Shown here piece by piece: positions 52,485 through 53,782 of a stretch of 64,000 bases of DNA. Position numbers and translations under genes: made by a program. Below the pieces are notes generated by a model. The model ran no database searches. It saw only the letters and a list, made by a program, of their open reading frames with translations, and had not been told where the DNA came from. Position 1 is the first letter of the stretch. Every line of letters begins with the position of its first letter. Origin of the DNA: Saccostrea echinata (lineage: Eukaryota); NCBI RefSeq assembly GCF_033153115.1, contig NW_026889759.1, forward strand, positions 10,602,001-10,666,000, read 5' to 3'.

Positions 52485-53782
52485 TTAGAAGTTGTCTTCT
52501 TCCAGTCTGTAACATTTAGACAGGCACAGGTTATGTTCCTCATGACATATGGAGTAGTGTTGTTCACTGATAGCTTCACGTAAACAGTGGAGGAAGCCCG
52601 TCACACAGTGTGTAGCATAGCATTCTGTATTTTAAAAAAATGACACACTAAAATTACTTGTAAAGATTGTCGTATTTGTGACTTATTTGTAGAAGCAATA
52701 TCTGATAATTTCTGAGAAACATCATGCACCCCCTAAAGTATATAACAATGTACGTACTGTGAATTCTTAGAGAAGTATGACAGTCACAACCATCTTCAGA
52801 AAGTCTATTATCTGAAATAGCAGATATATCTAAAGTTATTAAGAACCTTTTATTAATTACATGATTGATAGTTTTTGGTGACTGATGTCGAGTCCAAGAC
52901 TCCAAGACTTGTATATGACCACACAGAAGCAAATCAAATAAAACAAAAGTTTGCAAATGTACTTCATTTGGATAGGACTGGATCACGAAAGTGGAACAGT
53001 ATGGACTTTACTTTCCCTCTAGGTTCACATTTTCTCTTAGTAGGGACATTATGATTGTAAAGTCATAGAAATAAAGATAACCATTACAACAAAGACCCCC
53101 CCCCCCTTCAAAAATGAAACAAAGAATACCTCTTAATTTCACAGCATTGTCATCTAATGACTTCTTGCTCCACCAGGCTGGAAAGAAAATACACAGCATA
53201 CATCAACAAATAATGAAGGACACAATCAAATTAAATGTTCACCACTGCTATGTTCGTAGTTTTCATAAAGATTAAAATCGACGAAACAATAGTTTACAAT
53301 TACGACCCCATTGGATGAATTTAAATTTTCTTCTTGTTGTTGTAGAAAGTGTGACAAAAAAAATATTGGTCTTGCAGGAAAAAATATTTTGTTATAGAAT
53401 GGACAAGTTACAGAAGACCCCCCCCCCCTTCCCCTCTCAACATCGAGTTCTGAATTTTTCTTTGCTTTGTCTGTAGTAGAGTGGTCGTTATAATCAGGAA
53501 TTTAAGGTAAATGATCCAACGATTACAAACTTGCATTAATTATACTTACAGTTACGTTTAGCAAGTGACCCTGGATAAAAATTGTCTTCTGATATCGTTC
53601 GTGACTCGGTTAAACCTAAGAAATGAAAAATACAATATTCTTGTGACTTTTATGGAGTTTATAATCTTCTTTGCTGCTATATTGGGAGACAAACTCTCAT
53701 AACATGCATTAGTCTTACCTATAACAAATATAGTCATTAACAGTACACAGGGGAGTCTTCCAAACAAAGTTAAACCCTTCAT
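52485..53782 (-). CDS. Putative neuropeptide/prohormone precursor, 105 aa (KR-NSWWS-KK plus 6-Cys C-terminal peptide)
   Basis: Exons 53782-53719, 53615-53550, 53177-53130, 52624-52485, all phase-1 introns: MKGLTLFGRLPCVLLMTIFVIGLTESRTISEDNFYPGSLAKRNSWWSKKSLDDNAVKLRECYATHCVTGFLHCLREAISEQHYSICHEEHNLCLSKCYRLEEDNF*. Probable 5'UTR exon with a donor near 55129. Confidence 0.8.

Follow-up and report, generated by a model that had tools for sequence, protein, structure and literature searches.

Does a run of small exons on the minus strand of an oyster contig encode a secreted peptide precursor, and if so, to which family does it belong and which of its products acts as a signal? The locus lies within a 64,000-nucleotide stretch of Saccostrea echinata DNA (the window), to which all coordinates refer. 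A sequence-only reading had proposed four tiny exons encoding a signal peptide, an acidic spacer, the pentapeptide NSWWS between KR and KK sites, and a six-Cys hormone- or toxin-like peptide released at a KLR site, and had tentatively suggested a little-studied spiralian "WWS"-type precursor.

Gene structure and precursor anatomy

The gene runs from an ATG at 53782 to a TAA ending at 52485, and transcript-like contigs from two studies resolve five coding exons rather than four (Table 1). The splice evidence comes from five sets of such contigs (X1 to X5), drawn from at most two studies and presumed to derive from RNA; X4 lacks coverage of the 53130-52624 part, and full lists of joints were available for X1, X2, X3, and X5. 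The intron at 53718-53616 is spanned in three of the five sets (X1, X2, and X3) and that at 53549-53178 in two (X2 and X3), while the 54-nt exon 4, of phase 1-1, is spliced to both of its neighbours in X3 and X5, which stem from different studies and whose exon 4 joints show no more than two differing letters. All four coding introns are GT-AG, and all four are in phase 1. The five-exon translation yields a product of 123 residues, identical to RefSeq XP_061175407.1, which is annotated as "uncharacterized protein LOC133184375" of S. echinata. The four exons proposed from sequence do exist with GT-AG borders and are joined in contigs, but by way of the fifth exon, which had been missed.

Table 1. 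Features of the S. echinata WWS gene, in window coordinates.
Feature	Position	Strand	Basis
5' noncoding exon	55130..55154	-	X3 contig, GT-AG intron of 1329 nt to 53800; 5' end not defined
Coding exon 1 (ATG 53782; encodes residues 1-21, the greater part of the predicted signal peptide)	53719..53800	-	X1, X2, and X3 joints; hydropathy
Coding exon 2 (22 codons, from the last signal-peptide residues through the 14-residue spacer 27-40 and KR to pentapeptide residue 1)	53550..53615	-	Upstream joints X1, X2, and X3; downstream joints X2 and X3
Coding exon 3 (remainder of NSWWS, KK, start of linker, nonconserved KLR)	53130..53177	-	Splice joints, sequence comparison
Coding exon 4 (54 nt; Cys68, Saccostrea only, and Cys70, conserved)	52758..52811	-	X3 and X5 joints
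Last exon, coding part (Cys 79, 84, 91, 104, 111, and 115, and stop)	52485..52624	-	Contigs, translation
Probable 3' UTR	52034..52484	-	X3 all-exon contig reaches 52034; contigs unstranded; end not defined
Predicted mature NSWWS (residues 43-47)	53167..53553	-	Split by a 372-nt phase-1 intron
Cys-rich domain (residues 68-115, encoded by two exons; two-helix hairpin in the structure prediction)	52512..52788	-	AlphaFold2, Cys spacing

To assess copy number, the last exon and a distant homologue were each used as queries against the 923-Mb genome. Intact matches fell at this locus alone; two further weak matches (E 3.5-3.9) contain stops, and these searches returned no second Cys exon. The gene is real and single copy. 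The exon pattern WW-S/T-K-K/R was found 35 times in the genome versus 31 times for a reversed control, which is chance level. What carries the case is the splicing, together with homologues in which motif and Cys spacing are both retained.

Residues 1 to 26 of the precursor form a predicted signal peptide, as first proposed (9-residue Kyte-Doolittle peak of 3.2 over residues 13-21), and the oyster N terminus aligns with the likewise hydrophobic N termini of homologues. A mildly acidic spacer (residues 27-40) leads to KR-NSWWS-KK (residues 41-49; KR at 53559-53554 and KK at 53166-53161), and the translation confirms that NSWWS is framed by the two dibasic sites; its predicted free acid has a mass of 678.28 Da. 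A linker (residues 50-67) and a domain with eight Cys (residues 68-115; spacing 1, 8, 4, 6, 12, 6, and 3) follow, and the 123-residue protein holds no dibasic site C-terminal of KK48-49. The spacing read from the sequence alone, C-x4-C-x6-C-x12-C-x6-C-x3-C, is correct for the last exon, but the six-Cys peptide was an artefact of the missed exon: because the fifth coding exon is spliced in, the domain has eight Cys, seven of them conserved and one (Cys68) specific to Saccostrea. The KLR tripeptide (residues 57-59) stands 8 residues ahead of the domain's first Cys, and its S. cucullata counterpart is KLS. We rejected it as a release site, since it is not conserved even in S. cucullata, and the six-Cys peptide supposedly freed there, to which KLR is not adjacent, falls with it.

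Several neighbouring genes were recognized in the window. A convergent plus-strand gene at 45622-51704 has its last exons spliced in four contig sets, and these resemble the C terminus of aminopeptidase O; two of its short exons gave no Pfam match. Contigs run from its 3' UTR into the last WWS exon, so the two 3' UTRs abut or overlap around 52030-52460. Short interspersed repeats matched by many unrelated contigs occur at 52124-52290, within this shared region, and at 55525-55725. Upstream of the WWS gene and on the same strand lies a CDC20/Fizzy-like WD40 gene (57837-60347; PF24807, E 1.2e-10 on one exon). The plus strand also carries an apparently intronless 418-codon frame at 32942-34198 with an octopine/opine dehydrogenase domain (PF02317, E 2e-19), an enzyme type expected in bivalves. 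On the minus strand are an HMG-box gene with at least two exons, presumably SoxF-like (26039-29196; PF00505, E 3.8e-12), which has a stretch of 133 N between exons at 28081-28213; an organic solute transporter alpha exon (11653-11928; PF03619, E 6e-14); and exons at 44317-45092 that resemble TMEM68, for which Pfam gave no match.

Membership and range of the WWS family

The WWS-peptide precursor was found by mass spectrometry (MS) in the nemertean Lineus longissimus, with homologues reported solely from nemerteans and phoronids (Thiel et al. 2021, PMC8557429), and the supplement, in the portion available, holds 13 WWS precursor entries, 10 nemertean and 3 phoronid. Compared by eye, these precursors share with the oyster protein a signal peptide, a short spacer, KR-N-x-W-W-S/T-KK, a linker, and Cys spaced 8, 4, 6, 12, 6, and 3, but the oyster protein adds an eighth Cys (C68), and its linker is shorter. 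The seven Cys with this spacing are present in all 10 nemertean entries, and eight of the 10 carry KR/(x)-N-A-W-W-S/T-KK, in full or as the WW-S-KK portion; as for the others, two of the 10 are 5' partial, and one entry is a faulty gene model without KR-N. The three phoronid entries have six Cys (spacing 4, 6, 11-12, 6, and 3) and a longer peptide that ends W-F-S/T before KR. Exon borders, as far as they can be read from these entries, may be shared: a Notospermus gene model repeats, as a gene-model artefact, a 22-residue unit ending KR-N, just as oyster coding exon 2 is 22 codons long and closes on KR-N. The oyster protein carries the features that mark the family, namely, a signal peptide, an aromatic-aromatic-Ser/Thr peptide between dibasic sites, and the Cys spacing. 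By sequence comparison, the oyster gene is a new molluscan member of the known orphan WWS family, and the precursor suggested in the sequence-only reading was the right one, its layout matching that of the published proteins.

To look beyond these phyla, we searched the 45-residue Cys exon against 1.84 billion representative sequences. Besides the oyster's own protein, this gave a single match, XP_014670241.1 of Priapulus caudatus (E 7.5e-5; BLASTP E 3e-15), which carries KK-NIWWT-KR and the same Cys spacing. Because the query was the Cys exon alone, without the motif, the Priapulus motif is an independent check. XP_014670241.1 repeats 32 residues exactly (within residues 75-140), starting at the border of the last oyster exon, probably as a duplicated exon copy or an assembly artefact joined by annotation; each copy opens with C-Y, preceded by E in one case and Q in the other, which would suit a phase-1 intron like that at oyster K78. 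A profile search gave five matches among 852 candidates, including two new Logan proteins, and a cluster look-up added a third. All six stored full-length proteins (S. echinata, S. cucullata, the three Logan proteins, and Priapulus) match K[RK]-N-x-W-W-[ST]-K[KR], so that both the WWS motif and its dibasic sites are kept throughout this set.

An unannotated chiton sequence in file 2 of PMC6425005, apparently a set of unannotated candidates, has an identical KR-NSWWS-KK and seven Cys; no such match was found in files 3 and 4, although the truncated, line-wrapped text of files 2 and 3 may hide some. Our searches, which were word-limited and capped, and the deep scan with the 45-residue exon identified no arthropod, annelid, gastropod, or deuterostome homologue, a result that does not amount to absence. 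The last common ancestor of molluscs and priapulids stood at the base of the protostomes. Since the family is present in molluscs and a priapulid, it likely dates, judging from these homologues, to the protostome ancestor. The sequence-only reading was right in linking the gene to WWS, but "spiralian" was too narrow, a priapulid being included.

We found no receptor or function for the WWS peptide in print, in agreement with the sequence-only reading, which knew of none. A search for "WWS" with neuropeptide terms, in which subscription journals are mostly uncovered, gave among the matches listed only Thiel et al. (2021) and its preprint, and the available text and supplements of two oyster ganglion studies (PMC12564202 and PMC8398477) contain no WWS mention or motif. 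The gene is new relative to the oyster and mollusc neuropeptide catalogues searched; it may already be named elsewhere under another label, for example, among the 61 Conus neuropeptide families of PMC13542836.

Probable processing of the precursor, and its Cys-rich domain

The distribution of conserved residues bears on which part of the precursor is the signal. In the five-protein alignment, K41, N43, W45, W46, K48, and seven Cys are invariant. Compared with the Logan proteins, the nine-residue peptide cassette retains 7 to 8 identities, the linker 3 to 5 of 18, and the Cys domain 12 to 18 of 48, and by this measure of sequence the pentapeptide cassette is the best-conserved part of the precursor. 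The phoronid peptide is longer at its N terminus, but its other end keeps its place next to the second dibasic site, which is what release of the C terminus would predict. In Lineus, the three MS rows for the precursor all fall in the N-terminal spacer and confirm signal cleavage and the first KR cut, and the WWS pentapeptide is not among them (PMC8557429, as far as available).

We regard it as probable, on the strength of these comparisons, that the single-copy gene gives rise to a 123-residue WWS precursor that is secreted and cut by convertases to a free-acid NSWWS, the likely receptor ligand, and a disulfide-stapled hairpin. The five coding exons are spliced as described. The signal peptide would be removed after residue 26, as suggested by hydropathy and by alignment with the MS-confirmed Lineus N terminus. 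Cleavage at KR41-42, demonstrated by MS in the nemertean homologue, would presumably occur in the oyster as well, and a second cut at KK48-49 followed by trimming would leave the pentapeptide, which would bear no amide because no Gly is present. A KK pair is a weaker convertase site than KR, which counts against this step. The pentapeptide may then act on a G protein-coupled receptor through its C-terminal aromatic-aromatic-Ser/Thr, the portion singled out by conservation. The 74-residue C-terminal product is predicted to fold as an antiparallel hairpin with a ladder of 79-115, 84-111, and 91-104, its helices coming from structure prediction and its pairing from symmetry, and would be a co-released carrier or a second ligand.

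Three other accounts of the products were weighed against this one. If only KR were cut, the hormone would be an 81-residue chain that begins at N43, and its WW motif would form an arm, N-terminal to the hairpin, for binding the receptor. Such a product would agree with the Lineus MS data, in which the first cut was seen and the pentapeptide was not (PMC8557429, in part), with KK as the second site in oysters, the chiton, and nemerteans, and with the co-occurrence of motif and hairpin in every complete homologue seen. However, a dibasic pair is always kept straight after the S/T and is KR in Priapulus and the phoronids, the phoronid peptides vary in N-terminal length but are constant at the end set by the second dibasic site, and the linker varies in sequence and in length (17 to 22 residues). 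Short peptides, moreover, easily escape MS. We consider this one-cut product rather unlikely. A far weaker case can be made for a four-exon transcript whose functional product would be a six-Cys peptide freed at KLR. Skipping exon 4 preserves the frame, giving a 105-residue join, and the phoronid homologues, in the entries available, have only six Cys; nonetheless, the direct joint from 53130 to 52624 appears in none of the five contig sets, as opposed to inclusion in two, the exon is present in both RefSeq proteins (P0002 and P0003), S. cucullata has Ser in place of the Arg of KLR, and Cys70, encoded by exon 4, is invariant in all five aligned proteins. Assembled contigs lose rare splice variants, and a rare four-exon form could occur because the skip is in frame, but as the source of the functional product it is highly improbable.

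The remaining account makes the Cys hairpin the main active product, as a hormone, pheromone, or defence peptide of a nonneural gland, with the short peptides as by-products. In its favour, none of the seven Cys changes between oyster and priapulid, and the domain is identical at 44 of 48 positions between the two Saccostrea species; outside the Cys, however, hairpin identity to the Logan proteins falls below that of the cassette, a by-product would not be expected to retain N-x-W-W-S/T across protostomes, and the gene, in contrast to the usual toxin or defence family, has one copy. We regard this account as doubtful, less likely than a single cut at KR and well ahead of the four-exon product. 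The "toxin-like" label of the sequence-only reading finds no support either: a venom-type role is rejected because the gene is single copy, its Cys domain is conserved between the two oysters, and its relatives occur in nonvenomous animals. The two-cut precursor yielding NSWWS and a hairpin is the reading that we carry forward.

The predicted fold of the hairpin was examined with AlphaFold2, which placed helices at residues 70-94 and 98-122 (block pLDDT of 81-91 over residues 71-120) and disorder at residues 19-66; the models were built on three to five sequences, and the whole-chain pTM was 0.38-0.39. Cys 79/115, 84/111, and 91/104 lie symmetrically on the two sides of the turn (pair sums of 194, 195, and 195), and from this symmetry, rather than from the coordinates, we infer a three-rung disulfide ladder. 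Cys70 has no partner in such a ladder and may bond Cys68 in Saccostrea or, in species with seven Cys, a second chain; its counterpart is missing in the phoronid entries available. A homodimer prediction for residues 62-123, run without an alignment, scored 0.02, with a mark of 0.32, and speaks neither for nor against a dimer.

None of the domain or structure searches assigned the hairpin to a family. Pfam gave no family at its cutoff for five family proteins, and the best hit, CFC (E 0.0055-0.38), was rejected as a Cys coincidence. The PDB gave no match at E 10 by sequence with the exon query and a profile, and Foldseek gave none at E 0.001. VIA-align found generic helical hairpins only (best Z 7.5, rmsd 3.4 over 60 aligned residues; none with Z of at least 8), and short hairpins cannot be assigned to a fold family by such rows. 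In the ESM Atlas, one weak match to neuropeptide S (0.76) lay below the level reached by shuffles, and the Priapulus query gave no match. Nemertean neurotoxin B-IV and eclosion hormone are Cys-rich helical peptides, and neither was among the matches listed. The lack of Pfam, PDB, Foldseek, and VIA-align matches is no proof of a new fold.

Vasotocin-neurophysin and prohormone-3/-4 have a comparable layout, in which a short conserved peptide is flanked by basic sites and accompanied by a disulfide-rich domain, and the oyster GSWN and FYFY precursors likewise combine a short peptide with a Cys-rich domain (PMC8398477). No motif or Cys pattern in common with WWS was seen in these, and the likeness is an analogy of layout only. 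CHH-DREP and other doppelganger-related peptides are, like WWS, helical, disulfide-bonded, secreted spiralian peptides of obscure function, but CHH-DREP as described in PMC10501145 has two disulfides and three helices, directly follows the signal peptide, and has a phase-2 intron, whereas the oyster model has two helices and seven to eight Cys, and its coding introns are all in phase 1. The CHH superfamily, marked by three or more helices, a mature peptide next to the signal or to a short precursor peptide, and a phase-2 intron, was rejected on the two-helix model and the four phase-1 introns, and the DREP families were likewise rejected as the identity.

A possible link to cone-snail toxins

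The tails of conomarphins, conophans, and conotoxin-Ac1 read N-S-(F/W/I/V)-W-(S/T) behind a variable N terminus, as seen in the available parts of PMC7601563, PMC5100318, PMC10892987, PMC4278219, and PMC7143421. According to these excerpts, conomarphin-Bt3 ends NSWWS, its last five residues being identical to the oyster peptide, and Bt1 and Ac1 end NSWWT. The toxins differ from WWS in being Cys-free, 8 to 15 residues long, and hydroxyproline bearing, with a D-residue third from the end in several. In the same sources, as far as available, conomarphins are cut from M-superfamily precursors and are reported to act on molluscs but to have no effect in fish or mice (Mendoza 2019, via a citing paper); reviews assign them no target. 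In cone snails, neuropeptides are recruited often, in several cases behind 5' regions of the M superfamily, to which the conomarphins belong.

These tails raise the tentative idea that WWS is an ancestral protostome neuropeptide system, overlooked in molluscs and ecdysozoans, whose free-acid N-x-W-W-S/T ligand would be imitated by conomarphins, conophans, and conotoxin-Ac1. With assumed background frequencies and a motif chosen post hoc, an exact terminal match would be expected, as a rough estimate, 0.0002-0.002 times per 10,000 termini and the loose motif 0.02-0.05 times; the match spans five residues only. The reported NR2B activity of conotoxin-Ac1 at 8.2 uM (in the excerpt available) counts against mimicry. 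The literature search that linked NSWWS to a conomarphin table also listed a human WNT5A paper, and such 5-mers arise by chance. The main text of three doppelganger papers, in the portions available, mentions neither conomarphin nor WWS, and among the literature matches listed, themselves partly available, none proposes conomarphin-WWS mimicry.

The toxin-tail match offers one testable idea for two questions, the conomarphin target in molluscs and the WWS receptor. If it holds, the mollusc target of the conomarphins would be the WWS receptor, the toxins would be ready probes to find it, and the native WWS peptide might carry a D-Trp third from the end. With the oysters, the chiton, and the priapulid, an orphan peptide family moves from two small worm phyla to, in all likelihood, the base of the protostomes, and few protostome-wide peptide systems are still without a receptor and a function.
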